This document shows positions 27,702-62,151 of a stretch of DNA of 64,000 nucleotides, piece by piece. Origin of the DNA: an uncultured Gammaproteobacteria bacterium (GTDB lineage: Bacteria > Patescibacteriota > Microgenomatia > UBA10105 > UBA927); contig CAZKLT010000004.1 in NCBI GenBank assembly GCA_964553825.1, positions 3,137 through 67,136 of the forward strand, in the 5' to 3' direction. Position 1 is the first letter of the stretch. The number at the start of each line of letters is the position of its first letter. A program made the position numbers and the translations under genes. The notes beneath the pieces were generated by a model. It was not told the origin of the DNA, did no database searches, and saw only the letters and a list, made by a program, of their open reading frames with translations.

Positions 27702-27732
27702 GAATACTGTTTATGATACGGCATCAAATCGA

Positions 27733-30459: not shown

Positions 30460-30474
30460 TCATGATAATACGTT

Positions 30475-32073: not shown

Positions 32074-32093
32074 TGCGGCTCGGTACAATTTAA

Positions 32094-35002: not shown

Positions 35003-35055
35003 AACCCGGGGAGCGAGTTTGCTCCAACTTGTTCCCTGGGTTCGTATCATTTTTT
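35003..35055 (+). terminator. Possible terminator (compound hairpin AACCCGGG...CCCTGGGTT then T5)
   Basis: Imperfect stem, 8-nt gap before T-run; weak. Confidence 0.3.
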
Positions 35056-35079
35056 CGTATTTGTGATACGATAAATATT

Positions 35080-35637
35080 ATGGATGTGCAACAGTCGCAA
35101 TCACCACCAGGTGTACCACAACAACCAATACAGCCAATACAAGCACCGCCTCCTCCCGTCCCTGTCCAACCGCAGGCACCGCCTCCCACAACCGTGCAGG
35201 AGCAGCCGGTGAATGTTCACAAACGTTCCTCCCTGGGTATGTGGCTTTCTATCGCTTTTTTTATTCTTCTGGTTATCGCCGGGAATGTGTATATATTTCT
35301 TCCAAGAAGTGAGATTGATGTAGCAAATCCGGCACCCGGACGGACAATTCATGTGAACAAATTGTTTCTAACCAAGCCGGGCTGGCTGATCATCAGCCAT
35401 GTTTCAGTCGTGGAAGGAGTTACCGAGATTGCCGTTACTGCGCTCTTGGGACCGGAAGATTATCGTGATTTTGACCTGCCGCTTATGAGCGACGCGCTGG
35501 ATTTGGCGTCAGGGGATTTACTCTACGCAACACTGTATGAGGATACGAATGGCAATGAGGGATATGACTCGCGTATTGATAAGCCCATGCGAGATGCGTT
35601 ATTTCGCCCCATTCGCGTCAGCGTACGGGTTCAGTGA
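35080..35637 (+). CDS. Small membrane-anchored exported protein, family A (Pro/Gln-rich N-terminus)
   Basis: PGRTIHV..L.L.KPGWLIIS...LYEDTNGN...PIRV shared with 35710..36171. Confidence 0.55.
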   Translation: MDVQQSQSPPGVPQQPIQPIQAPPPPVPVQPQAPPPTTVQEQPVNVHKRSSLGMWLSIAFFILLVIAGNVYIFLPRSEIDVANPAPGRTIHVNKLFLTKPGWLIISHVSVVEGVTEIAVTALLGPEDYRDFDLPLMSDALDLASGDLLYATLYEDTNGNEGYDSRIDKPMRDALFRPIRVSVRVQ

Positions 35638-35709: not shown

Positions 35710-36171
35710 TTGGGCGCACCGTCAGCTCTTACTATGCAGGCGTCACGACCGATTGCGCAAAAAACTACCTGGTTTATCCCCATTGGGATAGCCAGCGTTT
35801 TCCTCGTATTGCTGGCTGGCTGGTTTATGGCCACTGCGCGAAGTTCCGTGCGGATTCAGGATCAAAAACCCGGACGAACCATCCGGGTGGCCGAACTTTC
35901 CCTTGCGCGTCCCGGCTGGCTGGTGGTCAACCGTGTGAATTTGACAGGCGGCGACGATGAAATTGCTGCTACACCTCGCTTAACGCCCGAGCAGTATAGA
36001 GAGTTTGATATTTCCCTGAAGGATGGGATGCCAGATCTTGCAACGGGGGATTTTTTGTTTGCTGTATTATATGAAGATCGCGATGGAAATAAACTGCTTG
36101 ATACTCTGGTTGATCGACCTATGAACAACCGCTGGGGCAGGCCGATACGTATCTTATTGCGCGTCAAATAA
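35710..36171 (+). CDS. Small membrane-anchored exported protein, family A
   Basis: PGRTIRVAELSLARPGWLVVN...LYEDRDGN...PIRILLRVK paralog of previous. Confidence 0.55.
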   Translation: MGAPSALTMQASRPIAQKTTWFIPIGIASVFLVLLAGWFMATARSSVRIQDQKPGRTIRVAELSLARPGWLVVNRVNLTGGDDEIAATPRLTPEQYREFDISLKDGMPDLATGDFLFAVLYEDRDGNKLLDTLVDRPMNNRWGRPIRILLRVK

Positions 36172-36173
36172 TG

Positions 36174-36875
36174 TTAGAAGATAGTCGTGTTTGGAAGCAT
36201 TTCCTGGAGAGTAGTGTAGGTTGCGGCGTCGATAGCATTTCCTCCCAGATACAGGTAGCGCAGGTTTGTGAGGCGAGACAATTCCTCAGGGAGCGTGGTG
36301 AGTCTGTTGCTACGCAGATCCAACGACGTTAATGCTGCCAGATCGCCGATCGTAGCCGGGAGATGGGTAATTGCGTTGTTGTTCAGTCGAAGCGTAACGA
36401 GTGCAGTCAGTTTCCCGATTTCGGGGGGGAGTTCTGTAAGCTTGTTGAACGGTAGTTCTAACGCGGTCAAACCGACGAGGTCACCGATTTGCGCAGGCAT
36501 CTGCGCCATCTGCGTATTGCTGACGCGAAGAAACGTGAGCGATGAGAGAAGTCCAATTTCCTGAGGGAGGTGCCGGAAAGAGGCGCTTTCTATGGTTAGC
36601 CGCTCAAGGGCAATGAGCGTGGCGATTTCTGCTGGAAGCATCTCTACAGTATCTTGCGGTGAAATATTGAGATCCTTCAGGTGCGGATTTTCGGCGATGA
36701 TCGCAGCGAGGCGCGCAGTGTCTGTCGGCTGCTGTAGTTGCCCCTGCGAGATGGTGGTGCCGCCAAAATGTGCAAACCGTGCGGCAAGATGCGGCGTAAG
36801 CTGCACCAGGCTGATAATCGCAGCTGCAAGCGATATGATGATGACCAGGGCACTGAGTGTGCGGCGTGCTGTCAT
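36174..36875 (-). CDS. Leucine-rich repeat protein, N-terminal membrane anchor
   Basis: Seven+ 23-aa LRR units (L..LP..IG.L..L..L.L..N.L..LP). Confidence 0.85.
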   Translation of the reverse strand: MTARRTLSALVIIISLAAAIISLVQLTPHLAARFAHFGGTTISQGQLQQPTDTARLAAIIAENPHLKDLNISPQDTVEMLPAEIATLIALERLTIESASFRHLPQEIGLLSSLTFLRVSNTQMAQMPAQIGDLVGLTALELPFNKLTELPPEIGKLTALVTLRLNNNAITHLPATIGDLAALTSLDLRSNRLTTLPEELSRLTNLRYLYLGGNAIDAATYTTLQEMLPNTTIF

Positions 36876-36912: not shown

Positions 36913-37344
36913 ATGATGCGGTGGATTGTCATTGGTTTTTGCTGGCTTGTTGCGCTTGCAGCACAGGGCGCGCGTTGGAGCCTGCAGCAGTCTGCCATAG
37001 CTGTCCATGACCAGCCCATCGGGGATACGGTTGTTGTGGATCGCGCGCGTACACCTGAACCAGGTGTTTTGGCTGTTGTAAACTCCCTTTACGGCAAGCC
37101 CTATTTTGAGCATATCCTTGATCAGGTAGACCTTCCCCGCGCGGGGACATATACACAGGTACAGATGTCAATCGCACAATATTCGCTCGGTTCTTCCCAG
37201 GCGCCCGAAGGCACAGAGGGGATATTGTCTCCAGGAAGCCTTGTCTATGCCGTGCTTATGGTTCCTAAGGCGCCGGGAGAAACACCGGAGCCGATGCGTG
37301 ATATTACCGGAAAACCGCTTGCCCACCCATTTCGATTACAGTAG
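36913..37344 (+). CDS. Small exported protein, family A (divergent)
   Basis: Signal anchor then V.DQPIGDTVVVDRA..PG.LAVV pattern shared with 38610..39014. Confidence 0.5.
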   Translation: MMRWIVIGFCWLVALAAQGARWSLQQSAIAVHDQPIGDTVVVDRARTPEPGVLAVVNSLYGKPYFEHILDQVDLPRAGTYTQVQMSIAQYSLGSSQAPEGTEGILSPGSLVYAVLMVPKAPGETPEPMRDITGKPLAHPFRLQ

Positions 37345-38070
37345 CTAGAAGTGTATATCGACATCCGGAAGTATGGCGCGGATGCGTGCCTTTTCTGTCT
37401 CAGAAATAAGATTTCCTCCCACATACAGTCGTTTTAGTGTACCGTTAAGTTTTGTCATGGAGTCAGGCAGCGTCCTGAGCCTATTGGACCGGGCATCCAG
37501 GACGGTCAGCGCCGTAAGATTGCCGATCGAATCGGGAAGCGTGGTGAGGCGATTGTCATAGATGTGCAGCGTGGTGAGGCGCGTAAGCGCTCCGATGGAA
37601 TCCGGAAGGGTCTCAAGCGCGTTTCCGCCCAGCTTCAGTGTCTCCAGCCGTGTAAGATTGCCAATCGTATCCGGAAGGTGCATTATGCGCTGGTCCTGTA
37701 TTTGCAGTCGGGTGAGCGAGGTAAGCGACCCGAGAGAAGCAGGAACGACGCGTACGTTTCCCCGGACAACTCCATAGCGGGCGAGCTGTTTCATGGGCAG
37801 AAGGGTGTCGATGTGAAGCGCGTTGATGTTGCATACCGGCGAATAGTCCAGCGTCGTTACCCGGGGCAATTTTTCCCAGACAGCGCGCAGTGACCTGCCG
37901 GCATCCCGGTCATACGTGCCCAGCGTCTCACAGTATTCCACCGGATCGTACGCCAGTTGTCTTGCAACGGGTTGAACCAGGAGTGTCGCGCCGGATACCC
38001 ATCCGGCAAAAAGGGACACACCCCACAGAAGAAGGGAAAAAGCCGGTGTGTGTCGTGCCTGCATGCGCAT
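37345..38070 (-). CDS. Leucine-rich repeat protein, N-terminal membrane anchor
   Basis: LPDTIGNLTRLETLKLGGNALETLPDSIGALTRLTTLHIYDNRLTTLPDSIGNLTALTVLDARSNRLRTLPDS. Confidence 0.85.
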   Translation of the reverse strand: MRMQARHTPAFSLLLWGVSLFAGWVSGATLLVQPVARQLAYDPVEYCETLGTYDRDAGRSLRAVWEKLPRVTTLDYSPVCNINALHIDTLLPMKQLARYGVVRGNVRVVPASLGSLTSLTRLQIQDQRIMHLPDTIGNLTRLETLKLGGNALETLPDSIGALTRLTTLHIYDNRLTTLPDSIGNLTALTVLDARSNRLRTLPDSMTKLNGTLKRLYVGGNLISETEKARIRAILPDVDIHF

Positions 38071-38106: not shown

Positions 38107-38613
38107 ATGACAGCGGCGAAACAGGCTCTCTCCTACGAAACGTGGGGCATCTTGGTTGTTTTCTTTCTTCTTGCGGCTGTGGCGTATTTTATCCGTTTCG
38201 TCGATACGCCGTCGCGGAAAATTTTTGGTGCGCAGATGTTTAACCAGGTTACGAACCGTGCGGACATGCCGATATGGGAGAACCCCGATTTCCCGCGTCA
38301 GGCAGGTTTACTTGAGATTTTTTCCATAAATGGCATGCTTGTGTTTGATGGTCACTTTGAACGACCTCTTCCCAAGACATCACTTGTCGTGTGGGTGCAT
38401 GTGGGAAGCTGTCGGCACATGGGAGAGAGGCGCTACGTACTGCCGCCGACATCAGCAGAAGCATCGGTCTGGTGGACGAGTTTGTATGCGTTCCCCTGGG
38501 AGCGGCTTTCGGGTGAGCTTCCGCTTGCGGTTTCGTTTCGCGATCCGGACGGTGAGCATGCGATATATTATTGCGCTGATATTCTGATGGAACAGGAAGG
38601 AGAGGCACCATGA
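38107..38613 (+). CDS. Hypothetical membrane-anchored protein
   Basis: Start set at internal Met to avoid overlap with LRR gene; one N-terminal TM. Confidence 0.4.
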   Translation: MTAAKQALSYETWGILVVFFLLAAVAYFIRFVDTPSRKIFGAQMFNQVTNRADMPIWENPDFPRQAGLLEIFSINGMLVFDGHFERPLPKTSLVVWVHVGSCRHMGERRYVLPPTSAEASVWWTSLYAFPWERLSGELPLAVSFRDPDGEHAIYYCADILMEQEGEAP

Positions 38614-39014
38614 GTGCATGGATACTCGCGGCACTTGTGTTTTGTCTAAGCGCGGTGGTTTCGGCGTACGTATCGCTTGCGCGCACAGCGTATGATCTGG
38701 TCGTGAACGATCAACCGGTCGGGACATCGATTGTGGTTGAGCGGCTGGTGCTTGAAAAAGGAGGCTATCTTGCCATCACACCGCTTTCCGGTCCAAACAC
38801 GCAGCAGTCAGTTTCCGACTATATGCCTGCAGGCGTATTTACTGATTTCAATGTGGATATCTATTGGGGAGACGAGCTTGATCTTCCGGCGCAGACGCCG
38901 GTAGTTGTACGGATCCTCGTGGATAACGGGGATGTGTACTTTGACTCGGAATTTGATGTACCTGCCCGAAACGCGCAGGGGCAGATGTATGAAAAAACGA
39001 TTGTCCTTCGGTAG
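38610..39014 (+). CDS. Small exported protein, family A (divergent)
   Basis: ATGA overlap with previous; VVNDQPVGTSIVVERLVLEKGGYLAI. Confidence 0.5.
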   Translation: MSAWILAALVFCLSAVVSAYVSLARTAYDLVVNDQPVGTSIVVERLVLEKGGYLAITPLSGPNTQQSVSDYMPAGVFTDFNVDIYWGDELDLPAQTPVVVRILVDNGDVYFDSEFDVPARNAQGQMYEKTIVLR

Positions 39015-40128
39015 ACTGGCCGTTGTTGTCGCGCTTGCTGTCCTGTGCGGCTTGGCGGCAGGTGCTTTGTTTAGAGGAATCAGAGGGGAGACGCTGAGGG
39101 AGCATGTCGCCTCCGCGTTTACATCCTGCGCAGAACCCACGAAGGAATTCGACTACAACTGTCTGCGAACGGTCATGACGCCGCTTGTGCGTGAGGATAC
39201 GCTTACACCCGTAATGGAGCACCTGCACGATATTTTTTCGTCGCCTGATGTTTCGCTTCAGACGCATGGTGCGCTGACGTGTCATCCGTCCGGCCATGTG
39301 GCAGGAGAGATAGCCGCAGAGAAACACATAGCGTTTTCCCGTATTACGCAGTTGTGCGGCGCGTCGTGCGATTACGGATGCACACATGGGGCATTTGTGG
39401 TAACGCTGCGGCGTGATCCTGGCTTTCTGGACAGAGTGGGTACCCTGTGCGATGAACTTTCTTCTTCCGGTATACGGCGGCAAATGTCTTCGTGTGGGCA
39501 TGTCGTCGGCCATGGGTTGGCCGAGGTATTTGCCAGCAACACTGACAAGGCTCTCGGGTATTGCGATGCGATTGATGATGCGTCCGCGCGTCATGCCTGT
39601 GGGCAGGGGGTTATGATGGAACAGCTTATTGGACTGCCAGACCGGCCAAAGAATATACCGTTGTCGTTGGAAAGCGTGCTGGTATTTTGCGACAGCCTTC
39701 CGGGTGTCTATAGGAAAGAGTGTTTCGATAACGTAGGAACGTATGCCGGACGGATTACGCAAACGGTACAGGAGGCGAAAGATGTCTGCACGCATGTTCC
39801 TGCTGAGTCAGCCGTGGCGTGTGTACAATCTCTTGGCGGCGTGGCGTACTATCATTTCCGGCATGAACCGGAGCAAATGAGCGCATACTGTCGCTCGATG
39901 GACAGTGCAGTGCAGGCGCCGTGCGTTCGGGGCGTTCTGGAGACCAGCGTCGGCGAAAAAGACCGCTTATGGTATGGCAATGCCCTCTGCAGGACATTTG
40001 CGCAATCCGCCCGCAGGGATTGTTTCGCATACTTCGGTATCCAGGTGGGCATGGCCTGGGGAGACCAGGTACGGGCAGATACGTGCAGTGCGCTGGAGAA
40101 AGAGGATATGCAGGCGTGTCAATTATGA
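38989..40128 (+). CDS. Cys/His-rich membrane-anchored paralog 1 (subtype D)
   Basis: N-terminal TM; CHPSGHVAGE..CGASCDYGCTHGAF..CGHVVGHG..CGQGV; start at internal Met MKKRLSF. Confidence 0.65.
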   Translation: MKKRLSFGRLAVVVALAVLCGLAAGALFRGIRGETLREHVASAFTSCAEPTKEFDYNCLRTVMTPLVREDTLTPVMEHLHDIFSSPDVSLQTHGALTCHPSGHVAGEIAAEKHIAFSRITQLCGASCDYGCTHGAFVVTLRRDPGFLDRVGTLCDELSSSGIRRQMSSCGHVVGHGLAEVFASNTDKALGYCDAIDDASARHACGQGVMMEQLIGLPDRPKNIPLSLESVLVFCDSLPGVYRKECFDNVGTYAGRITQTVQEAKDVCTHVPAESAVACVQSLGGVAYYHFRHEPEQMSAYCRSMDSAVQAPCVRGVLETSVGEKDRLWYGNALCRTFAQSARRDCFAYFGIQVGMAWGDQVRADTCSALEKEDMQACQL

Positions 40129-41066
40129 ATATCCGCACCATTTTTTCCCGCCTTCCGGTGCCCATGAGGTGGGTCATCCTGCTTGGGGCAATCGGGATAG
40201 CGCTTTTTGCCGTTACCAAGACAGGATATACCGACCGCCGGCATCCAGCGCTTCTGAGTGGCAGGGAAGTCGTACGGGTGCGTGGACAGATTACGCGTGT
40301 CATGCGGACGAAAGGGCCGCGGGTAGCGTATGCATACGCCAAGACATTGTTTCCGTACGACACATCGGGTGTTTCCCAGCACTTGACGATGCATATCTTT
40401 GCGGAAGTGGCGTACGGCCGGTACGGCGCCACCGCCATGGCGTATTGTGATCGGGAGTTTTCATATGGGTGCTATCATGGCTTTTTGGGGCAGAATATTG
40501 CCCGTGAGGGTCTGGACGCGGCGCGAGATCTTTTTCTGGCATGTAAGGATGAACCGAATGTCATCGCATGCCAGCATGGGATCGGGCATGGCATTATGCA
40601 ATATATGGGCCACAGACGTTTGAAGGATGCTCTTGATGCTTGTGTGCAGATCGGCGCACCCGTCGCCGCGACCGGATGCTTCGGTGGTGCGTATATGGAG
40701 TATCACTTTCCCGCGTTGTCAGCCGGCGGGGCACAGACGGCGATGCGGTTTGATCCAGAGAATCCGTATGACGTCTGTCCTGAGCTCCCGACTGCGTACC
40801 AGTCGTCGTGTTACTTCCGTCTGGCCGAGTGGTGGGAGCAGATTCTTAGCCGTAACTACCGCCTGATGGGCGGACTGTGTGCCAGGATAGGGGAGAGCGG
40901 GATGCGTGAGCAGTGCTTTACCGCCATCGGGGCAACGAGTTTTACCACCGGGGGACATATCCGGCAGGGGGTTATCGATGCCTGCAATCAGGCGACAGGC
41001 AGCCCGGGATACGAGCGGTACCGGGATATCTGTTTGCGGGGATTTGATACACAGAGTCAACGTTGA
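40125..41066 (+). CDS. Cys/His-rich membrane-anchored paralog 2 (subtype D)
   Basis: ATGA overlap with paralog 1; MHIFAEVAYG..CDREFSYGCYHGF..CQHGIGHG..CFGGAY. Confidence 0.7.
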   Translation: MNIRTIFSRLPVPMRWVILLGAIGIALFAVTKTGYTDRRHPALLSGREVVRVRGQITRVMRTKGPRVAYAYAKTLFPYDTSGVSQHLTMHIFAEVAYGRYGATAMAYCDREFSYGCYHGFLGQNIAREGLDAARDLFLACKDEPNVIACQHGIGHGIMQYMGHRRLKDALDACVQIGAPVAATGCFGGAYMEYHFPALSAGGAQTAMRFDPENPYDVCPELPTAYQSSCYFRLAEWWEQILSRNYRLMGGLCARIGESGMREQCFTAIGATSFTTGGHIRQGVIDACNQATGSPGYERYRDICLRGFDTQSQR

Positions 41067-41072
41067 TCAGGC

Positions 41073-42161
41073 TTAGTTCTTCCAGACGTTGTGGACCAGG
41101 ATGCCCTCCGTGAAGTAATTGTGCTGTTCTCCCGGAAGGCTGAGGTTGTAGACGGGCGGATTTTCGTCTACTGCTGTAATGCTGCCCACGAGTAGCTGGT
41201 TTCCCTGGGGGTCAAGGAGCATATCGTTCACGCGAATAGCGTCGGCTCTGAGCCACGCCTTCCTGTTTTCCACCCAGATATTGTGACCTTTCGTGACACG
41301 CAGTGTCCCGTTGATCACCAGATACCCTGCTTCCTGCGACTCCGGATCTTCCGAGGGACTTGTATGAACCAGAAGCGCGGCTACAGGATTGGGTACCAGA
41401 GTTTCTGTCGTTAGGTCGTAGGAGAGTACAACGTCGCCCGGTCTGATATCCTGTATTTCCTTCAGGGTGCCGTCTGCCATAAGTACCTTGGTGCCAGCCA
41501 GGAAACATCCGCCATAGCTGCCATATGATGATTGCCCGTACCCATAATAGCTTGCTTGTCCATAGCCATAGCTGTAAGAATAGTAGCTGCTTTGGCTATA
41601 GGCATAGTAGTTGGATTGGCTATAGGCATAGTAGTTTGCCTGGCCGTAATTATAGTAGGTGGATTCGGAGTAGGAATAGCAATTATTGGTGTACTGCCCA
41701 TTACCGTCGTCGCAATCTGCACTGAGGGACTTCATGAGGCCAATTCTTCTTCTTCCGGGTGCAGACGCATCATAGTATTGGGCAGTGGGACTAAACCACC
41801 CGTCTGCATCCGCGTCATCAATCCAAAGACCGTTGCCTACCAGAAGCTGGCCGCTGCCGATTGCAATACCACCCGCGCCGTTGATGATAAATTGTCCGGC
41901 AATGATTTTCTGGCTTGACGAGAGGGTCAGATTGTAATCTCCCAGAGTGATGGTAGCGGAATTTGTCGTGGATGATTCGCTGTTTTGCGGGTTGTCTACC
42001 CCGTCAATCGTATATGAGTATGTACAGGAAGCCGTGAGGACGACGTTGCCGTATGTTGTCGCAGGACGGGCACAATCAGCTAACACCGTGTGTTTCGGCG
42101 CGAGAAGGAGCAAGAATACGAGTGCGCAAAGTAATGCAAGGGGTGTGAAAAGTCTTTTCAT
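41073..42161 (-). CDS. Secreted protein with C-terminal Hint (bacterial intein-like, BIL) domain and Tyr/Ser/Gly-rich linker
   Basis: Signal peptide; ...YYAYSQSNYYAYSQSSYYSYSYGYG... then CFLAGTKVLMADG (Hint block A), TKGHNIW (block B TxxH), VYNLSLPGEQHNYFTEGILVHN (blocks F/G) ending 4 aa before stop with Val at +1. Confidence 0.85.
   Translation of the reverse strand: MKRLFTPLALLCALVFLLLLAPKHTVLADCARPATTYGNVVLTASCTYSYTIDGVDNPQNSESSTTNSATITLGDYNLTLSSSQKIIAGQFIINGAGGIAIGSGQLLVGNGLWIDDADADGWFSPTAQYYDASAPGRRRIGLMKSLSADCDDGNGQYTNNCYSYSESTYYNYGQANYYAYSQSNYYAYSQSSYYSYSYGYGQASYYGYGQSSYGSYGGCFLAGTKVLMADGTLKEIQDIRPGDVVLSYDLTTETLVPNPVAALLVHTSPSEDPESQEAGYLVINGTLRVTKGHNIWVENRKAWLRADAIRVNDMLLDPQGNQLLVGSITAVDENPPVYNLSLPGEQHNYFTEGILVHNVWKN
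41560..41660. repeat. Tandem ~24-bp DNA repeats (TTGGCTATAGGCATAGTAGTT..) encoding the NYYAYSQS repeats of the Hint protein
   Basis: Direct repeats read from sequence inside CDS 41073..42161. Confidence 0.6.
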
Positions 42162-42164
42162 ATG

Positions 42165-42740
42165 TTAGCGAAACGCAAAGCCGCCTGTATAGGTTTCATC
42201 TGTGCCGACCAGGGTGAAGTCGAGATAGTATATTTCGTTGTAGGTGTCGTCAGAAATGCGAGTCGCTTGCCACGTGCCGTTGGTGTCGGTACCCGCGATA
42301 CGCGTAAATGTGAGTGGTGTTTTCTTCGTATCGGTGTCGAGCCGCGCCGTGACCGACGTGATGGGGGATGTATGGGTGGCCTTTACGGTGATCGTCTGAG
42401 TGACACCGGGTTTCACGCCAAGCGGATCAAGGCTGAATTCGTAGATTTTGGGGCCCTTGGCTTTTGGACCCGGAGCATATTGGAATGTTTCTTTCCCGGG
42501 ATTAAGAAGTCGGGGAGACGGCTTGGGTCGCATGCTGGCGGTAGGAGTAGCGCCGCCCGATTCTTCTGCGGGCACACCGCTTAACCAAGAAACCATCTCA
42601 CCCTTTTGCGTAAAAATGTAGAATGCCAATAGAAGTACAATAGCACCAATGCCTATAAAAAGAGGGGTATTGGAGATGCCGTTGGACCTTACCTTATTCA
42701 CGATATGATTTCTTTTAGACTTTGCCTTATGTAATTTCAT
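42165..42740 (-). CDS. Hypothetical membrane-anchored protein (beta-rich ectodomain), operonic with Hint protein
   Basis: N-terminal TM (LFIGIGAIVLLLAFYIF); 4-nt gap to downstream Hint gene. Confidence 0.5.
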   Translation of the reverse strand: MKLHKAKSKRNHIVNKVRSNGISNTPLFIGIGAIVLLLAFYIFTQKGEMVSWLSGVPAEESGGATPTASMRPKPSPRLLNPGKETFQYAPGPKAKGPKIYEFSLDPLGVKPGVTQTITVKATHTSPITSVTARLDTDTKKTPLTFTRIAGTDTNGTWQATRISDDTYNEIYYLDFTLVGTDETYTGGFAFR

Positions 42741-42865
42741 GACAATGTCCTTATCTTCATCCTAGGAATACGCACATCTCTTGTCAAGGGGTAAACGTGA
42801 TATACGTTACTGACCGTTTACTATATAGTTGATACAACGATGTAAGATAGATTACTTGAGACTGA

Positions 42866-44047
42866 ATGAAAAAGGTGATATTTATCGGTGTTCTCGTGTT
42901 CCTTTTTGTTGCGTGGGCTTTCCGCGCCAAACCCCAGGTCAAATCGTACCCTGAAGTGTCCTATCTTGCAGCGCAGACTATGGACTTCGGACAGTTAAGT
43001 ACGTTTTTCACCAGGCTTGCGCAAACCAAGGGAGCCGCCTATGCGTTTGAGGTTCTCGGACAGGCGTCACTCCCGCCAAATACGGATATGCACCTGCTTG
43101 GTCATGTCGTGGGAGATGAATTATATAAAGAAAAAGGAATTGACGGGATGCGTATTTGTACGCAGGATTTTCGGAATGCCTGCTCTCATTCCATTGTTGT
43201 GGGATATTTTCTTGCCCATGGAGAAGAGGGATTGGGGGCGATAGCCGAAGCATGCAGAACTGCTCCGGGAGGAAGTGGCGCGTATACCATGTGTTTCCAC
43301 GGCCTTGGTCACGGTATTCTGGCAGCTGTTGACTACGATCTTCCCCGGGCTGTTGCCCTGTGCCAGAAAACGGGAACACTTCCGTACGGATACCGTGAGG
43401 CTTCCGAGTGTTCCAGCGGGGCCGTCATGGAGATTATATCCGGAGGGTTTCATAATAAGACACTTTGGGAAAAGGCCTCAAAACGCTATCTGTCCTTGAC
43501 CCAGCCGCTTCTTCCCTGTGTCGCTGACTATATGCCGGCAGTCGCGCGGCCGTCCTGTTTTGAATATCTCACTGGACACCTGGTTACGGCTGCGGGCGGC
43601 TCACTGGATACGGGTGTGCCGACGGATGAGGTCATTGTGCGCGCTATGCAAATGTGCACTCAGGTGGTTGACGCAGCTCCTCGGGATGCGTGTTACAAAG
43701 GATTTGGAAAAGAATTTATCGTCCTTGTGCACAATCGCGATACGCGGACATTGACGGATATGAACGATGAAGAAATGAACGAAACATACCGCCTGTGTGG
43801 CCTTGCTCGCGATACGCGCGGGGAACAGATGTGCCTGACGCATGCGCTTGATTCTCTCTACTGGGGAGGCGAAAACGATATCCGCGGGGCAGTACGGTTC
43901 TGTGCGCTGATGTCATCTCCGGTTATGAAGGAGACTTGTTTTGCGCACTTAACGGGTGCTATACAATTCTTTGCGAAGACCCCGAGGGAGAAAAACGAAG
44001 ACTGTGGAGCGCTTCCCGAAGCGTACAGAAGCAGGTGTTATGAATAA
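42866..44047 (+). CDS. Cys/His-rich paralog 3 (subtype D)
   Basis: DMHLLGHVVGDELY..CTQDFRNACSHSIVVG..CFHGLGHGI..CSSGAVME. Confidence 0.7.
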   Translation: MKKVIFIGVLVFLFVAWAFRAKPQVKSYPEVSYLAAQTMDFGQLSTFFTRLAQTKGAAYAFEVLGQASLPPNTDMHLLGHVVGDELYKEKGIDGMRICTQDFRNACSHSIVVGYFLAHGEEGLGAIAEACRTAPGGSGAYTMCFHGLGHGILAAVDYDLPRAVALCQKTGTLPYGYREASECSSGAVMEIISGGFHNKTLWEKASKRYLSLTQPLLPCVADYMPAVARPSCFEYLTGHLVTAAGGSLDTGVPTDEVIVRAMQMCTQVVDAAPRDACYKGFGKEFIVLVHNRDTRTLTDMNDEEMNETYRLCGLARDTRGEQMCLTHALDSLYWGGENDIRGAVRFCALMSSPVMKETCFAHLTGAIQFFAKTPREKNEDCGALPEAYRSRCYE

Positions 44048-45524
44048 CAGAAAGGCGATAACAGGAGGGACGATTGCCGTTTTTGCCGCATGCGTGTGGG
44101 TGTTTTGGGCAAAGGCGTTCGTCGTGGGAGACGGCAGGAGTATAACGTTCCGTCAGGACGGTTACCGGCCCACGCGATTAACCGTGCGCGTCGGGGATTC
44201 CGTGACGTTCAGAAACAATTCGGGCAAGCCATTCTGGCCAGCCAGCAATAACCACCCAATCCATGAACTGTATCCCGAATTCGATCCGCGTAAGCCGATT
44301 GCTCCCGGTGAGTCATGGCAGTTTACGTTTACCCAAGAAGGAAAATGGCGTTTTCATGATCATATATATCCGGAATTTCGCGGCACGATCATGGTGCTCC
44401 CTCCGGGGAAAACCACCCTTCCGCCGCTTGACTGCAGTGCGTCTGCTGATGCCCAAACAAAAGGTCGCTGCTGGGAGGAAACCCTCAGTGATGCCCTGGA
44501 AACACGCGGCATTGCGGGCGCGTTCAAGGAATTTTCCCGATTGTATAAAACGGACACCGACTTCATACGCAGCGGGTGTCATGTGCACGCCCATAGGATC
44601 GGGGATGAATTTTTCCAGGCATATGCATCCAAGCTGCGGAAGCTGGAGGGCATAGAATTGCCCGTGGAAACTATGAGCTGTGGATACGGGTTTTTCCACG
44701 GATTGTTTGAACATTTTTTCCGGAAGTATCCGGATGTAGAATTGGCGCGGGCGATTTGTGACGACTTGGATTCGCGCTACAGCAAGACAATTCCGCTTAT
44801 CCGTATCAACTGTTTCCATGGCGCCGGTCACGGACTGATTGCGGATCCTCCCGATCCTTCATCCTGGGGAAACCCAAAGTCGCTTGTGGCTGGGCCGCTT
44901 GCGCTGTGTGCGCAAATTTCCCATATACCCGATGAATCGCATGCCTGCATTGACGGGATATTCAATGTCGTATCCAGTTGGATGGGGGACGCCAAGTACG
45001 GTATGAGCATAGACGCGGCAGATCCGTTCTGGCTTTGTGAATCAGTCCCCGACGTGGCAAAGGAATCCTGTTATTATGAACAAATTATGGTAATGAGCGA
45101 GATGGAGAATAGGGATCTGCTTGCAATTACGCGGAAATACGTGGCACCGATTGCGGATCCGCAGATCGCAAGGCTTGTTATGTTCTCGCTTGCGGCATCG
45201 TTCATGCAAAAAGACGTCGCACTTGCCGATCACGCGCATATGCTCGTGAATTGTAGAAATGTGCCCGCCGGTCTGAAAGAACGTTGTTTAGAAGGCGTGT
45301 TAAACGGTTTTAAGGGACATGGCGAACCGGGAAATGAATACAACAAAGCGCTGGCATTCTGTGCGCTTCCCCAGATGACGCGGGAGGAACAGCAGGTCTG
45401 TTATCCGTATCTGGTAAGGATTCTTTGGGAGTTATATCCGGCCCAAAAAGTGTTGTCTCTTTGTTCAATGATTCCCAGTGAATACAGAAATGCCTGCGAA
45501 ACACGGATGATTCAGCAAAACTAA
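44040..45524 (+). CDS. Cys/His-rich paralog 4 with N-terminal cupredoxin-like domain (subtype C)
   Basis: TM, then ITFRQDGYRPTRLTVRVGDSVTFRNNSGKPFWPASNNHPIH...WQFTFTQEGKWRFHDHIYPEFRGTIMVL, then CHVHAHRIGDEFF..CGYGFFHGLFE..CFHGAGHG; 8-nt overlap with paralog 3. Confidence 0.7.
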   Translation: MNNRKAITGGTIAVFAACVWVFWAKAFVVGDGRSITFRQDGYRPTRLTVRVGDSVTFRNNSGKPFWPASNNHPIHELYPEFDPRKPIAPGESWQFTFTQEGKWRFHDHIYPEFRGTIMVLPPGKTTLPPLDCSASADAQTKGRCWEETLSDALETRGIAGAFKEFSRLYKTDTDFIRSGCHVHAHRIGDEFFQAYASKLRKLEGIELPVETMSCGYGFFHGLFEHFFRKYPDVELARAICDDLDSRYSKTIPLIRINCFHGAGHGLIADPPDPSSWGNPKSLVAGPLALCAQISHIPDESHACIDGIFNVVSSWMGDAKYGMSIDAADPFWLCESVPDVAKESCYYEQIMVMSEMENRDLLAITRKYVAPIADPQIARLVMFSLAASFMQKDVALADHAHMLVNCRNVPAGLKERCLEGVLNGFKGHGEPGNEYNKALAFCALPQMTREEQQVCYPYLVRILWELYPAQKVLSLCSMIPSEYRNACETRMIQQN

Positions 45525-45526
45525 CG

Positions 45527-46696
45527 ATGAAAACTGTCATATCGCACCGTTTCCCTTTCGTCATAGGTTTTGTTCTCGTGTTGGCTATCGGCGCAGGTCT
45601 CTTTGCGGGGAGTGGACAATTTGGCCGGCCTACCTGTGATCAGAAAGATGCGGAAGCACTGAAAAAATGTTGGGAAGCGGTGGTGTCAGTGTCTATGAAG
45701 AAGGGAGATATCGCAGGCGCATTTGATTCGCTGGCTGACCTCTATGGTGCCGCACCTAATCTGGGAGAAACGTGTCATAGTCTTACTCATGAGATAGGCC
45801 GAACGGCGTATCGGTTGTTTGCGCGCGATGTTGACTTTGGCATTACGCCGAAAACCGCATACTGTTCCTATGGCTTTTACCATGGGTTTATGGAAGAGCT
45901 GGTTTTGGCAAAAGGCGACATGAAGCTTGCGCGGGAATTTTGCAGTTATGTGGATCAGCAGCTTGTAAAGGTGAGTCCGGACGTGACGCTTCAGTGTTAT
46001 CACGGTATCGGGCACGGAACCGTCAATAATCATGATCCAAGAACATGGGGAGATCCGCAGAAGCTTATCGACCCGGCCATTGCGCTGTGTGAGGAAGTGG
46101 CGACGAATGACAGCGAAGTAAACCGATGTGCAACCGGGGTCTATAACGGACTTGCCGTTTTTTACAGCAACGGCGAATACAAATTAACGCTTGACCGAAA
46201 TGATCCGGTCGGCATTTGCAGAAGGCAGCCAGAGAAGTACCAGGATGCCTGTTATGTCAGTTTCAATACGCTTCTTTTGGGGTTGACGGGATATGATTTG
46301 GCAAAGGCTGCGACGTACCTTGCCCATATTCCCCAGGATGTGATTGCACAGCATGCCATGATTAACCTGGCATCTCCCGTCGGCACCAAACATATCACGG
46401 AAACAGACCATGCTCCAACGATTTCTGTCTGCCGGTCGCTGCCCGCGCGTATTCGGCTTGCGTGCATTCAGGGATATGCGTTTGGTTTTTTGGAACACGG
46501 TGAACCGACGAAAGAATACATAAAACCTCTTCAATTTTGCGAATCAAATCAGCTTACTACAGAAGAGCAAAATGCATGCTTTGAGTACATTTTAGGGTAT
46601 CTTCCCAGATGGTATGCCAAAGAGAAAGTTTTGATGATTTGTTCGGATCTTAATCCGAAATGGAAGGAATATTGTGAGAAGCAAACTATTCAATAG
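45527..46696 (+). CDS. Cys/His-rich paralog 5 (subtype B)
   Basis: KCWEAV..CHSLTHEIGRTAY..CSYGFYHGFMEEL..CYHGIGHG..CATGVYNGL. Confidence 0.7.
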   Translation: MKTVISHRFPFVIGFVLVLAIGAGLFAGSGQFGRPTCDQKDAEALKKCWEAVVSVSMKKGDIAGAFDSLADLYGAAPNLGETCHSLTHEIGRTAYRLFARDVDFGITPKTAYCSYGFYHGFMEELVLAKGDMKLAREFCSYVDQQLVKVSPDVTLQCYHGIGHGTVNNHDPRTWGDPQKLIDPAIALCEEVATNDSEVNRCATGVYNGLAVFYSNGEYKLTLDRNDPVGICRRQPEKYQDACYVSFNTLLLGLTGYDLAKAATYLAHIPQDVIAQHAMINLASPVGTKHITETDHAPTISVCRSLPARIRLACIQGYAFGFLEHGEPTKEYIKPLQFCESNQLTTEEQNACFEYILGYLPRWYAKEKVLMICSDLNPKWKEYCEKQTIQ

Positions 46697-48101
46697 AGCG
46701 CATGCATTTTTTCTGTTTACGGCATCAGGAATTTTGGGCCTCATTGCTTTTGTTGCTGTCGGCACCTGGTTTTCCAATACCGTTATTACCTTGACGGATG
46801 ACGGATTTTCTCCGAGGGTGGTAGTAGTGAGGAAAGGGGCGACAGTTCGCTTCAGTTCAAATCGTGGGCGATATTTCTGGCCCGCATCCGATCCGCACCC
46901 CATCCATACGAAGGAGCTGAGTTTTGATCCGAAGCGTGCCATTGCCCCGCAGGGTCAGTGGGAGTTTGTTCCCATGTCAGCAGGAATTTGGACATACCAT
47001 GATCACACCGCTCCGCAGTTTCGCGGGACGGTTATTGTACTTGCGGGCGACAGCAGCGTTTTGTCGTATGTGTGGGGACGTATTGGTCAGTGGGCTCGCA
47101 TCGTTTTGCTGAACACGCAGCGGCAAAGCGATGCATATTTCCGCGACTGCGGCCCTCTGGGTAAGGACTGTTGGGACAGAGCGTTTCTCGAAGTGGTCAA
47201 CCGCGAGGGGTCGCGGGAGGCATTAAGAATGGTGGATTATCTGCGGCGGACGTATCCTGAGTTTGCCAATTATTGCCACCAGTATGCCGATTTTATTGGT
47301 GACATTTCTTATTGGAATATACCTGCGGCGCGCAGAGTTCTTGATTTTGACATCTCGCTTGCCGGGCAGTGCTCAAGCGGCTACATGCACGGATATATGG
47401 GAGAGTTTATGTCACACGGTATTTTCGCGCAGGGTGTGGCATTTTGCGATCAGATTAGAGCCAAATACCCGGGAACAGAAGCGGCATTGGAGTGTTACCG
47501 GGGGATCGGCAATGGGCTTACCTTTCAAAACGGTTTTCTCTATTGGAATGATGAAACAGCGATCGTCGATCACGCTCTTGCCGGTTGCAGCGGGTTGGCA
47601 GAAGAAGATGCCTGTCGAAGTGGGGTATTTGTGGGGATAGATCACATGCATTTTGGCGTACACGGTTTTGAGTTACGACGTGATCCGAATGATCCGTTTG
47701 CGCTTTGCCGTGGCCGGGATACCGTTACCGAGGCTGCCTGTTATGATGCGACGATCTCATCCTTTTTTGCGGCGGTTGGTTATGATTTGTCCGAAGCGGC
47801 GAAGCATCTGCGCATACTACCCCTTATTCATGCCAAGCGCGTGGTGGAGCAAGTCGTGAAAATTCCTTACGAGCTGGAAGATTTTGAACGGAAAGGCGGA
47901 AATATGACCATTATTGCCTGGTGCCGATCAATCGGCGGTGCCTTACATCCTGCATGTTTTCGGGGATTTGTCCTGAAGTTATACACGATCGATGTTGAGT
48001 ATAATGGACAAAGTAGTCTTGCCCGCGAATTCTGTGGGAATTCATTTCTGAATCAGTCAGAGAAAGACATGTGTCAGCAGATATTCAATGAAGCCATATA
48101 A
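46674..48101 (+). CDS. Cys/His-rich paralog 6 with cupredoxin-like N-domain (subtype C); GTG start
   Basis: ITLTDDGFSPRVVVVRKGATVRFSSNRGRYFWPASDPHPIH...WEFVPMSAGIWTYHDHTAPQFRGTVIVL; 23-nt overlap with paralog 5. Confidence 0.65.
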   Translation: MRSKLFNRAHAFFLFTASGILGLIAFVAVGTWFSNTVITLTDDGFSPRVVVVRKGATVRFSSNRGRYFWPASDPHPIHTKELSFDPKRAIAPQGQWEFVPMSAGIWTYHDHTAPQFRGTVIVLAGDSSVLSYVWGRIGQWARIVLLNTQRQSDAYFRDCGPLGKDCWDRAFLEVVNREGSREALRMVDYLRRTYPEFANYCHQYADFIGDISYWNIPAARRVLDFDISLAGQCSSGYMHGYMGEFMSHGIFAQGVAFCDQIRAKYPGTEAALECYRGIGNGLTFQNGFLYWNDETAIVDHALAGCSGLAEEDACRSGVFVGIDHMHFGVHGFELRRDPNDPFALCRGRDTVTEAACYDATISSFFAAVGYDLSEAAKHLRILPLIHAKRVVEQVVKIPYELEDFERKGGNMTIIAWCRSIGGALHPACFRGFVLKLYTIDVEYNGQSSLAREFCGNSFLNQSEKDMCQQIFNEAI

Positions 48102-49269
48102 ACTCATTATTCCAATTTCATTATTTTTTCTGGTTACCGCTTCCTATGTGGGCCTGTATCGCGGAGCGGGATCGACGCCCCAACATGCAGCGCAGCGTGT
48201 CATCAGTCGGTGTCAGAACGAAGCCCACCGACCTGCCTGTTATGAGCGGGAGATTCCGAAACTCATGAACACGCTCTCCATGGAAGATGCCTTTGCCGTC
48301 ACCCGTCTGGTGCAGGACGCTGATCCAGCGTTTGCATACTGTCATGTGGTAGCGCATAAATTAACCGCGATAGAAACAAAAAAGAATCCTCTGAGGTGGA
48401 AAGACGTCATGCTCAGGTGTCCGCAATCGGCGTGTAATTACGGCTGCCTCCACGGATCGCTTATCGAACGGTTCCGCGGAGAAACACTCAGCGATACGCA
48501 GATCGCTCAAACCGAACTCAGCATAAAAGATCTCTGTGAGCCGCGCCCGGGATTTGCTCCAACGGAAATTGAGCGCACGATGTGTTATCACGGCATAGGA
48601 CATCTTGCGATGTATATGACCGGAGGAGATCCTGCGCGCAGTATTCCGGTATGTGAGCGGCTTGCGAAGCGGGACGATGGCCGGGAGTATATAAAAACGT
48701 GTGTTGAAGGCGTATTTATGACTGTTTTTCAGAGTATCGATCCTGAAGATCTCGCCCTCGTTATCGACATTAGGCCCAACAAGCAGGATGTTGGCGCTTT
48801 CTGTGAGCAGTACGGTGTATACGTGGCCAACTGCCGACGTGAATCTTACGCGATGTTCGCAGACGAAACCCAAACCGCCGAAGGACTCCGCTCTTTCTGT
48901 TCCTATGCCCGCGGAGAAGAGGAAAAGCGGGATTGTTATTGGGCGGTGATTAACGCCAAAACGACGATATTCTTTGAACAGTCCGATTCGGTTTCCCGGA
49001 TTGGAGCATACTGTCGATCGTTTCCGGCAGACACTCGCAGCTGGTGCTGGCGGGGAGCGGCTATGCGGTTAGTACAAATAGATCCGTTGAGGAATGTCCG
49101 TGCGGCTGATTCCGTCTGCGCTATGGGGTCGACACAAACAGAAATCCAATCCTGTTATCAGGATTTGCTTTATTATGCTGAATTCTCGTTTGAAAAAAAC
49201 AGCCAACCATATAAAGAGTATTGCGGCGGCCTTGCCGAATCCTGGAGACAGCAATGCGTCAGTCAATAA
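48088..49269 (+). CDS. Cys/His-rich paralog 7 (subtype A)
   Basis: RCQNEAHRPACYEREIPKLM..YCHVVAHKL..CNYGCLHGS..CYHGIGHLAMYMTGGD. Confidence 0.7.
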   Translation: MKPYKLIIPISLFFLVTASYVGLYRGAGSTPQHAAQRVISRCQNEAHRPACYEREIPKLMNTLSMEDAFAVTRLVQDADPAFAYCHVVAHKLTAIETKKNPLRWKDVMLRCPQSACNYGCLHGSLIERFRGETLSDTQIAQTELSIKDLCEPRPGFAPTEIERTMCYHGIGHLAMYMTGGDPARSIPVCERLAKRDDGREYIKTCVEGVFMTVFQSIDPEDLALVIDIRPNKQDVGAFCEQYGVYVANCRRESYAMFADETQTAEGLRSFCSYARGEEEKRDCYWAVINAKTTIFFEQSDSVSRIGAYCRSFPADTRSWCWRGAAMRLVQIDPLRNVRAADSVCAMGSTQTEIQSCYQDLLYYAEFSFEKNSQPYKEYCGGLAESWRQQCVSQ

Positions 49270-50450
49270 AAAGGAAACCATTGATCGTGGGAACACTTAT
49301 AGCAGCGTGCGTGGGCTTGCTTGCCGTTGGCGTCTGGTATGTGTCGCGGGGAGCGAGCGTATCGTCAAAAATGGTGGCAGCCTTGGCCTCAAGCTGCGCT
49401 CAGTCAACGGAAACTGCCAAAACGCAGTGTTGGGAAGATCTCGTGCGTAAGGTTATCCGGGAGCATGGCGTACGGGCGGCGTTTGACGTTATATCCGCTC
49501 TGCATGATGCAGATGCGCAATTTGCACAAACCTGTCACGCCATGGTGCATATTGTGGGACAACAGGCATACGGAGAATTTCATACGACCGGACGGGTTGA
49601 TTTGTCAGCGAAGGCAGCGTCCTGCGCATTTGGGTTCTATCATGGATTTATGGAGATGTTGGTAGCGCGCAAAGGGACGATTGCCCAGGCGCAGCAATTT
49701 TGTGATTATGTCGATCGGATACTCGGAAATGAGACACCGAATGCGATATATAGCTGCACTCACGGGATTGGACACGGATCTACCGATATTCATAATCCTC
49801 AGTATTATGGGAATGAGCGGGCGGTCATAGCGCCTGCGATTGCAAATTGTGAGGCATTTGCCCGGGACGATCATGAGCTGACGCTCTGCGCGACGGGCAT
49901 ATTTGATTCGATTGCGCTTGCATACTACAACAACGGAGAAAATGGGTTTGTGATGAAAAAAGAGGACCCGCTCTGGCTCTGCCACGAGCAACCCTTAAAG
50001 TATAAGGAGGCGTGCTATCGTGATATGATGCCAGCCGTGATTTGGATGGGGGAGCACGACCTGACCCTTGCCGCCCCGATCGTTTTCACGCACGCAGAGG
50101 ACGACTACAAGGCGTTTGCCCTTGAAGCCCTTGCGGAAAACAGCGTTCGGTTCATTGTGAACAAAAAACCAACCACCGTATATCTGCCATATTGTCGCTC
50201 CCTTACGGGAAGTCTCTCTGATGCCTGTGTACGCGGATTGGCGGCAGGAGCGATGCAATTTGGCAGACCTGATCGTGAATATGAAGACGCGTTGGTATTC
50301 TGTAAAGACGACCTGCTCACTGCCGGAGAGAAGGATATCTGCATGAAGCGGATTTTGGATTATGCACGCGGGCGGTATTCGCAAAAGCGGGTTTCTGATA
50401 TCTGCAGGGAAACAGAAGAAATCTGGCGACCGTACTGCACACAACTATGA
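49254..50450 (+). CDS. Cys/His-rich paralog 8 (subtype B)
   Basis: QCWEDLV..CHAMVHIVGQQAY..CAFGFYHGFMEML..CTHGIGHG..CATGIFDSI; start at ATG 49254 (16-nt overlap). Confidence 0.7.
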   Translation: MRQSIKRKPLIVGTLIAACVGLLAVGVWYVSRGASVSSKMVAALASSCAQSTETAKTQCWEDLVRKVIREHGVRAAFDVISALHDADAQFAQTCHAMVHIVGQQAYGEFHTTGRVDLSAKAASCAFGFYHGFMEMLVARKGTIAQAQQFCDYVDRILGNETPNAIYSCTHGIGHGSTDIHNPQYYGNERAVIAPAIANCEAFARDDHELTLCATGIFDSIALAYYNNGENGFVMKKEDPLWLCHEQPLKYKEACYRDMMPAVIWMGEHDLTLAAPIVFTHAEDDYKAFALEALAENSVRFIVNKKPTTVYLPYCRSLTGSLSDACVRGLAAGAMQFGRPDREYEDALVFCKDDLLTAGEKDICMKRILDYARGRYSQKRVSDICRETEEIWRPYCTQL

Positions 50451-51676: not shown

Positions 51677-51677
51677 T

Positions 51678-53677: not shown

Positions 53678-53680
53678 GAT

Positions 53681-61370: not shown

Positions 61371-61447
61371 TATGGTTATTGTAGTTATCCGAATTTTTCT
61401 GTCAAGATGATGTTGCTTTTTACTAAGTGTGTTGCCATACTGAACGT

Positions 61448-62128: not shown

Positions 62129-62151
62129 ACGGAATGCGGTACAGTAAAATC

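Follow-up and report, generated by a model that had tools for sequence, protein, structure and literature searches.

What purpose does a Hint domain serve when it closes an exported protein and no cargo follows it? The question is raised by a minus-strand gene in the 64,000-nucleotide stretch analysed here (the window; contig CAZKLT010000004.1, labelled as an uncultured Gammaproteobacteria bacterium). The gene lies inside an array of genes for Cys/His-rich membrane-anchored proteins, immediately downstream of a small gene for another membrane-anchored protein (the partner), and its product is predicted to consist of a signal peptide, a short beta-helix, a Tyr-rich segment and a terminal Hint domain of the bacterial-intein-like (BIL) type (Table 1). 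Our preferred answer, to which we assign a probability of about 0.65, is that the Hint domain is a self-removing C-terminal module which would process its own protein after export, with no extein rejoined. The domain type is already known; what has no earlier description is this family and the gene neighbourhood conserved around it.

Known since 2003, BIL domains have natural roles that are poorly defined beyond ideas about the generation of variability or the release of toxins. The family described here offers a clean case for such a role: the Hint domain is terminal and without cargo, its catalytic residues are conserved, orthologs without the domain display the likely product, and the tail contains a Lys that can be mutated. 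The family makes the question of BIL function in nature directly testable, in a form that should not astonish a specialist.

Organisation of the protein and identity of its C-terminal domain

The N-terminus (MKR, then LFTPLALLCALVFLLLLA, then PKHTVLA preceding DC) resembles a Sec signal peptide as read from the sequence, residues 5–19 form a helix in an AlphaFold2 model of the protein built on 30 homologs, and an equivalent N-terminus followed by a near-invariant Cys is found in all homologs, in agreement with the signal peptide assigned in the initial annotation; we infer that the 362-residue protein is an exported surface or extracellular protein. A lipoprotein was considered and rejected, because Asp precedes the post-signal Cys in the clade of the window protein and leaves no lipobox. 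The N-terminal domain that follows has conserved residues in Cys30/Cys46, a DxDADGW motif (D116, D118, D120), R139 and a DC(D/N)D...TNxC motif (Cys150/Cys161). When residues 29–165 were modelled alone (mean predicted local distance difference test score, pLDDT, 79; predicted template modelling score 0.72), the fold was a short beta-helix, and the domain is predicted to be a small, disulfide-stabilised beta-helix of the adhesin-like kind.

The segment between this domain and the Hint domain (residues 161–218) contains 21 Tyr in 58 residues (36%), arranged in 8-residue YYxY(S/G)Q(S/A)x repeats, and is predicted to be disordered, with pLDDT below 50 across residues 151–215 in the AlphaFold2 model. 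Part of it is encoded by a 24-nucleotide tandem repeat at 41580..41644 (2.4 copies, 90% match), which fits the differing number of repeats in this segment between homologs.

All of the intein motifs reported in the initial annotation are present in the C-terminal ~140 residues: block A, CFLAGTKVLMADGT, at aa 219–232; block B, TKGHNIW, at aa 290–296; and blocks F/G, VYNLSLPGEQHNYFTEGILVHN, at aa 337–358, ending in ...GILVHN, after which come only VWKN and the stop codon TAA. The catalytic set of the window protein is C219, T290, H293 and H357-N358. Hidden Markov model (HMM) searches placed aa 212–358 above cutoff for Pfam PT-HINT (PF07591; 41.9 bits, cutoff 27.7), which was the best-scoring Pfam model, Pfam Hint (32.9 bits, cutoff 29.7) and NCBIfam intein_Cterm (18.9 bits, cutoff 15.6), while the matches to Hint_2, Hom_end_hint, Vint and Intein_splicing were all under cutoff. 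Among PDB sequences the best matches were 8w20 (UmbC1, E 2e-10), 6tmm/6y75 (BUBL BIL2, E ~8e-10) and 2lwy (E 4e-6). The Hint region (aa 219–358) was modelled with pLDDT mostly above 90, and Foldseek returned 61 PDB matches at E ≤ 0.001, with a Hint fold in 50 of the 50 listed; the BIL structures 6y75 and 2lwy ranked first (target template modelling (TM) score 0.83), followed by mini-inteins and, lower, Hedgehog, and the match probability was 1.00 to BILs, mini-inteins and Hedgehog. Since the 140 residues of the domain are contiguous and align over their full length with mini BIL and mini-intein structures of 138–155 residues, there is no endonuclease insert, as had been noted at first.

The C-terminal domain is a Hint-superfamily mini-domain with A-type BIL features, belonging to the BIL-A/PT-HINT clade. 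With A-type BILs defined as in published reviews (PMC4031507, PMC7765530, PMC5874633, PMC7664689), it has Cys1, a C-terminal His-Asn, no Cys, Ser or Thr at +1, no endonuclease and a secreted, non-housekeeping host, with the caveat that the host family is itself conserved within its lineage; the finding that the nearest solved structures are BIL domains stands here as a proxy for the original BIL-A/BIL-B motif classification. The initial annotation had called the domain a non-splicing BIL outside any housekeeping gene. The host is indeed a lineage-specific secreted protein and the BIL assignment is borne out by HMMs and structures, whereas 'non-splicing' should be taken as probable, low-level splicing having been reported for A-type BILs (PMC4031507).

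Conservation of the domain and its tail, and orthologs without it

An identical protein sequence exists in an NCBI assembly, on a contig of 73 kb. A word-indexed search recovered ~30 full-length homologs of 337–401 residues, one of them already named 'Hint domain-containing protein [Microgenomates group bacterium]', and an exhaustive profile search added more, giving 40 non-redundant proteins with both the N-terminal domain and the Hint domain (a separate HMM was used for each). They share one architecture: a signal peptide, a Cys-containing N-terminal domain with the DxDADGW and DC(D/N)D...TNxC motifs, Tyr-rich YxY(G/S)Q(S/A)xY units, the Hint domain and a tail of 1–8 residues. Cys1, Phe2 and the penultimate His are present in 40/40 members, and the block B Thr and His, like the terminal Asn, in 37/40, which indicates that the Hint catalytic set is under selection across the family. 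The three remaining members (P0028, P0030 and P0046) have jointly lost the block B Thr/His and the terminal Asn, and keep Cys1, Phe2 and the Hint fold. Two members carry additional sequence: P0028 has a laminin-G-like insert of ~230 residues within the N-terminal domain, and P0061 an apparent FN3-type insert, judged by eye from the sequence.

The Hint domain stands at the extreme C-terminus in all 40 members. In the window protein the +1 residue is Val, VWKN alone follows the terminal His-Asn (as had been described), and the stop codon of the convergent paralog at 41066 is 6 bp from the TAA of the Hint gene; Thr occupies +1 in a single member (P0019, tail TYKL). The short tail is a family trait and no accident of assembly. 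A conventional splicing intein was rejected on these grounds (the Val at +1, the four-residue tail closed by TAA, the convergent gene 6 bp away and the short tails throughout the family), and no extein continues downstream. The protein also departs from a canonical class 1 intein in having neither a +1 nucleophile with a C-extein nor a conserved housekeeping host.

The one constant element of the tail is a Lys, found in 37/37 members with an intact His-Asn across 25 distinct tail sequences, at +1 in 6 members, +2 in 20, +3 in 7 and +4 in 4. Against a Lys background of 3.3% in the family proteins, the naive probability of this distribution is ~1e-37, a figure inflated by the relatedness of the sequences; the Lys has nonetheless been kept through changes of both tail length and tail sequence. 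The 132 closest Hint proteins outside the family (248 complete copies) have Cys1 in 242 copies, His-Asn in 231 and a Lys at +1 in 136. In a further set of 81 Hint copies from species-representative genomes (archaea, Omnitrophota, Myxococcota, Planctomycetota, Elusimicrobia and the Candidate Phyla Radiation, CPR), found with a DNA pattern that excluded the +1 position, Lys was at +1 in 50 and at +2 in many others, and 27/81 copies end within 12 residues of the stop codon. A Lys at +1 is, on these counts, common across the nearest Hint clade (55–62% of copies), where it could favour Asn cyclisation or be part of the fold. The same clade includes proteins of ~185–200 residues with little beyond a terminal Hint domain, and head-to-tail arrays of up to 5–8 Hint domains (P0082, P0038, P0060, P0047 and P0058), with linkers of 1–5 residues that start with Lys (...LVHN-KGG-CF...), some of these arrays lying inside proteins of more than 4000 residues.

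Nine proteins were found to have the N-terminal domain without a Hint domain; four were checked in their contigs and all are complete genes inside the contig. A partner-like gene lies immediately upstream in 4/4 of these loci, confirmed by HMM in L089, L090 and L091 and assigned by position only in L093. The closest comparison is provided by P0141 (L093, 194 aa, on a 96-kb contig), which occupies the same slot as the Hint gene, flanked by the partner and by a convergent DUF7282 gene, with paralogs beyond on the other side, and whose N-terminal domain is at a distance of 0.10 from that of the Hint-bearing P0006; it ends in ...YGQSQYGAS, 2 residues short of the position of the Cys1 junction in P0006. 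P0172 (L090, 214 aa) is in the same slot, ends shortly past its Tyr-rich repeats and has no Hint remnant downstream, and P0150 (L091, 206 aa) is preceded by the partner, with paralogs close by. P0036 (L089, 277 aa) also has the partner upstream; it is without the Tyr-rich tail, its C-terminal region is of another, Cys-rich kind, and its neighbours differ. A neighbour-joining tree of the N-terminal domain, computed without support values, places the Hint-less forms here and there among Hint-bearing sisters, and the pairing of P0141 with P0006 is unambiguous.

Where a Hint-less form has an aromatic-rich tail, the protein stops inside that tail or directly behind it, close to or at the point that corresponds to the Hint junction. 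Such an ending would be expected if the Hint domain removes itself and the product is the beta-helix with the Tyr-rich tail, and the comparison suggests that this is the mature product. The conserved core of the system is the partner together with the beta-helix protein. At L089 (positions 1–2700), the genes after P0036 encode two type IV pilin-like (N_methyl) proteins and proteins with SLH and cohesin domains, neighbours which hint that the partner/beta-helix pair may be connected with pilus or surface-layer structures.

Proposed self-removal and its alternatives

In the mechanism favoured here, the precursor would be exported and lose its signal peptide, Cys219 would attack the carbonyl of Gly218 (an N-S acyl shift at Gly218-Cys219), and the resulting thioester would be resolved, most simply by hydrolysis, to free the beta-helix with its Tyr-rich segment, while cyclisation of Asn358 could optionally clip off VWKN. 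There would be no extein ligation of consequence, and the logic would be Hedgehog-like (release of an N-terminal product) more than toxin-like (release of a C-terminal toxin). N-S acyl shift and Asn cyclisation, with mainly cleavage products, is the chemistry described for A-type BILs (PMC4031507, PMC7664689; also PMC7765530).

Several points weigh against self-removal. Cleavage is deduced from sequence and model, and both the export of the protein and the extracellular redox state of Cys1 are assumed. The Lys kept in every intact tail is not explained by plain hydrolysis. Block F position 4 is Asn in 36/40 members, where inteins usually have Asp, with a possible effect on catalysis, and the joint losses in P0028, P0030 and P0046 mean that a non-catalytic role of the fold may also exist. 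A useless or selfish terminal domain could moreover be lost through a single stop codon, so that its retention among lineages that share only ~35% identity implies a benefit which self-removal leaves unnamed. The source labels of the sequences also disagree, some naming 'Microgenomates' or other CPR groups and others 'uncultured Gammaproteobacteria', as discussed below.

The strongest competitor, which we regard as unlikely, is that the Gly218 thioester is attacked by an amine and not hydrolysed, making the Hint domain a built-in ligase that would need neither ATP nor a sortase. The acceptor could be the epsilon-amine of the tail Lys (giving an isopeptide cap) or the alpha-amine that Asn cyclisation exposes; it could also be a Lys or other amine located on the partner, in the cell wall or on a further subunit. 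The uniform presence of Lys at four different tail positions and its frequency at +1 in the wider clade are in keeping with this; A-type BILs are able to ligate by aminolysis (PMC4031507), and the partner, co-transcribed to judge by its position, has an invariant Lys (K110). For BUBL BIL2, the nearest solved structure, an isopeptide is reported to arise when the epsilon-amine of a Lys in its C-flank attacks the thioester (PMC8616854), and Lys-directed aminolysis is for this reason a live hypothesis. However, the Lys flank is clade-wide and also follows internal Hint copies that precede long C-terminal regions, and the Lys may merely favour Asn cyclisation or belong to the fold. The Hint-less orthologs, furthermore, keep both the slot and the partner, so that Hint-driven attachment is not essential to the module, and the partner goes with the beta-helix domain independently of the Hint domain. 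Were the thioester transferred and not hydrolysed, this would be a new bacterial route of covalent protein attachment and a compact ligation tool. We place still less credence in a broader version drawn by analogy, in which the terminal Hint domain and its tail Lys would form a self-contained ligase by which a Tyr-rich adhesin is capped, anchored or polymerised at the CPR cell surface, and the whole Lys-flanked clade (with its terminal archaeal, Omnitrophota and Myxococcota copies and its head-to-tail HN-KGG-C arrays) would act by Lys-directed aminolysis.

It is improbable that the Hint domain is non-catalytic, that is, a folded module which serves in binding or as an aid to the solubility or secretion of the aggregation-prone Tyr-rich tail and stays uncleaved in vivo. 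The three members that keep the fold without the block B Thr/His and terminal Asn would suit such a role, as would the Asn at block F position 4, and an oxidising extracellular setting could block Cys1; yet the full catalytic set is present in 37/40 members with Cys1 invariant, and the orthologs without a Hint domain stop close to or at the junction, which is where a functional N-terminal product should end. Poorer still is the case for a polymorphic-toxin remnant, a PT-HINT module whose C-terminal toxin has been lost, which we consider very improbable: PT-HINT is the best Pfam model and the best PDB sequence match, UmbC1, comes from the Streptomyces umbrella toxin, in which HINT stands before the toxin (PMC11062931), but a toxin domain follows the Hint domain in 0/40 family members, the next gene downstream is a convergent paralog and no immunity-type gene, and catalytic residues and locus are conserved across divergent genomes, unlike decay. 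A splicing intein whose C-extein was missed through frameshift, stop recoding or misassembly can practically be dismissed, despite the intein-like character of blocks A, B, F and G and the good structural match to mini-inteins, given the Val at +1, the TAA and nearby convergent stop, the same short tail in every homolog from independent assemblies, and a host that is not a conserved housekeeping protein.

The gene cluster and comparison with known systems

The small membrane-anchored partner described in the initial annotation has the expected form, with a basic N-terminus, one transmembrane helix (~aa 25–45), a Pro/Thr-rich linker and a beta-rich domain of ~110 residues, and lies on the strand of the Hint gene, opposite to the paralogs. 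Its orthologs are 26–72% identical, and a weak Big_7 match was its only one in Pfam, with nothing informative in NCBIfam or PDB. Elsewhere the spacing between partner and beta-helix gene ranges from a 4-nucleotide overlap to an 11-nucleotide gap. A consensus scan of the divergent intergenic region upstream of the partner found one promoter-like site against 2.3 in shuffles, so that only its position is suggestive; no terminator-like sites were found near the Hint gene. Because the partner also lies upstream of the Hint-less orthologs, it is tied to the beta-helix domain and not to the Hint domain.

The loci of divergent family members were scanned with custom HMMs, giving 10 independent loci with upstream sequence, part of them gathered from an alignment of 11 closer sequences. 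In 10/10 Hint-bearing loci the partner is immediately upstream on the same strand and at least one further paralog lies downstream on the opposite strand, usually followed by leucine-rich repeat (LRR) and DUF7282 genes; an array of at least six paralogs runs divergently from the partner in the 10 loci (L016: two dispersed copies). This order is kept at Hint-protein identities down to ~35%. In the window, where 14 paralogs were counted, the partner/Hint pair separates the 2 upstream from the 12 downstream, as first described. The initial annotation had left two explanations for this arrangement. A recent horizontal insertion into a pre-existing array was rejected, since GC content runs through the Hint gene without a break and the order is conserved in all 10 loci; these two findings together indicate that the partner and Hint gene are an ancestral part of the cluster. 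The alternative, a functionally linked module, is supported by the constant order of partner, Hint gene and flanking paralogs.

Table 1. Features of the window around the Hint gene and in the surrounding cluster (positions in the 64,000-nucleotide window).
Feature	Position	Strand	Basis or remark
Whole gene, predicted secreted Hint/BIL-ending protein, 362 aa	41073..42161	-	Open reading frame list; TAA stop 41073..41075
Signal peptide, aa 1-28 (MKR, hydrophobic core, VLA before DC)	42078..42161	-	Sequence reading
N-terminal domain, aa 29-160, predicted short beta-helix	41682..42077	-	Domain model
Tyr-rich low-complexity segment, aa 161-218, ending at Gly218 (Hint -1 residue)	41508..41681	-	Composition
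Hint/BIL domain, aa 219-358	41088..41507	-	Pfam, NCBIfam, PDB and Foldseek matches
Hint Cys1 codon	41505..41507	-	
Hint block B, TKGH	41283..41294	-	
Hint terminal His-Asn	41088..41093	-	
Tail VWKN after His-Asn, holding K361	41076..41087	-	Lys family-wide in intact members
Partner, 191 aa, co-transcribed (by position)	42165..42740	-	3-nucleotide gap to ATG of Hint gene
Promoter-like site (TTGACA, 17 nucleotides, TAGGAT)	42759..42787	-	Consensus scan; 125-bp divergent intergenic region upstream of partner
Paralogs 1-2, Cys/His-rich membrane-anchored family, convergent with Hint gene	38905..41066	+	All-vs-all BLASTP, family HMM, alignment
Paralogs 3-14, same family, divergent from partner/Hint pair	42866..57908	+	All-vs-all BLASTP, family HMM, alignment
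Paralogs with extra N-terminal cupredoxin-like domain	43956..45524, 46674..48101, 53681..55159, 55150..56697	+	
Small DUF7282-like paralogs and two LRR proteins	35029..35637, 35710..36171, 36913..37344, 38610..39014 (+); 36174..36875, 37345..38070 (-)	+/-	
Three small tandem paralogs (233, 192 and 188 aa), 30-35% identical, downstream of array	61427..63214	+	
DegT-family aminotransferase	57988..59223		

The 14 paralogs are 22–39% identical to one another and all have an N-terminal transmembrane helix. In the numbering of 42866..44047, their conserved residues include the His H76 and H80 (CHxxxH), H108, and H145 and H149 (CxHGxGHG), and seven invariant Cys (C143, C166, C182, C218, C231, C311 and C323), a pattern from which one might guess at a metal site. 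The idea that type-3-copper-like His sites of the paralogs act on the Tyr-rich tail was set aside, as no result supported it. Four paralogs carry an extra N-terminal cupredoxin-like domain (Cupredoxin_1 27.4 bits against a cutoff of 27 for 43956..45524) with conserved FWPAS..HP.H and (F/Y)HDH motifs, and Cupredoxin_1 also matches at orthologous positions in other loci. Beyond this domain the family has no Pfam match, and no PDB sequence match was obtained.

More than 1000 homologs of the paralog family were found, all 'hypothetical', with the source names Nomurabacteria, Microgenomates, Sungbacteria, Kaiserbacteria and Parcubacteria, and because of these names the organism is most likely one of the ultra-small bacteria of the CPR (Patescibacteria). 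Loci L010, L012, L013, L016–L019 and L082 come from metagenome-assembled genomes titled 'uncultured Gammaproteobacteria bacterium' with a CPR-type cluster; for other members the label is Saccharibacteria or Microgenomates. In the former titles 'Gammaproteobacteria' is probably a placeholder or a taxonomic error.

The LRR and DUF7282 genes recur in other genomes, again on this side of the cluster, and probably belong to the same extracytoplasmic system. The cluster is a CPR-specific set of extracytoplasmic proteins comprising the 14 Cys/His-rich paralogs, the LRR and DUF7282 proteins, the partner and the Hint gene. The flanks (24148..33620 and 1461..3299) are rich in envelope and glycosylation genes, encoding two tetratricopeptide repeat membrane proteins, a PMT_2 glycosyltransferase, a spermine-synthase-like membrane protein and an NPCBM-domain protein, to which the DegT-family aminotransferase of Table 1 can be added. 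No tRNA or Rfam RNA was found within the 64-kb window. CPR surface structures are thought to mediate attachment to host cells, and the family gives a first handle on a conserved and wholly uncharacterised CPR extracytoplasmic cluster.

No description was found in the literature of a BIL family that is always protein-terminal with a Lys-bearing tail of 1–8 residues, of a beta-helix and Tyr-rich host, of a fixed position of the gene in a CPR-specific cluster, of natural Hint-less orthologs, or of Hint domains in CPR, DPANN or Omnitrophota, tandem Hint arrays or a Lys at +1.

Among characterised relatives, the Clostridium thermocellum A-type BIL (2lwy) has the same mini-Hint fold (TM score 0.83, 30% identity). 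A-type BILs and the window domain share Cys1, the TxxH of block B, the C-terminal His-Asn and the lack of Cys, Ser or Thr at +1, and both occur on a secreted, non-housekeeping bacterial protein beside a region of variable length. The differences are that the C-flank here is 1–8 residues with its Lys in all 37 members with an intact His-Asn, that the domain ends the protein, so that C-terminal cleavage would free no cargo, that block F position 4 is Asn, and that the gene belongs to a conserved multi-gene cluster and not to a hypervariable locus.

The best structural match was BIL2 of Tetrahymena thermophila BUBL1 (6y75/6tmm; E 3e-12, TM score 0.83), which was also the second-best PDB sequence match. 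That domain is eukaryotic and cytoplasmic and lies between ubiquitin-like domains, which it conjugates, whereas the protein here is predicted to be exported and has a tetrapeptide C-flank; Zn dependence and isopeptide formation are features of BUBL BIL2, to which the window protein is likened by sequence and predicted structure. PT-HINT (PF07591), with UmbC1 (8w20), belongs to the same Hint clade and gave the best Pfam and best PDB sequence matches. In polymorphic toxins a C-terminal toxin domain comes after PT-HINT and an immunity gene lies downstream (PMC11062931), whereas the window holds no toxin or immunity gene and none of the 40 members has a toxin domain.

The Hog domain of Hedgehog has the same fold (1at0 and 6tyy, E ~1e-5) and is more distant than BILs and mini-inteins. 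The protein here is bacterial and, with 1–8 residues after the Hint domain, is without a sterol- or adduct-recognition region. Hog domains are not known to have the His-Asn, which the window protein keeps. Notwithstanding these differences, the functional logic proposed here is that of Hedgehog: a precursor with a signal peptide, from which the N-terminal product would be freed by way of a Gly-Cys thioester.

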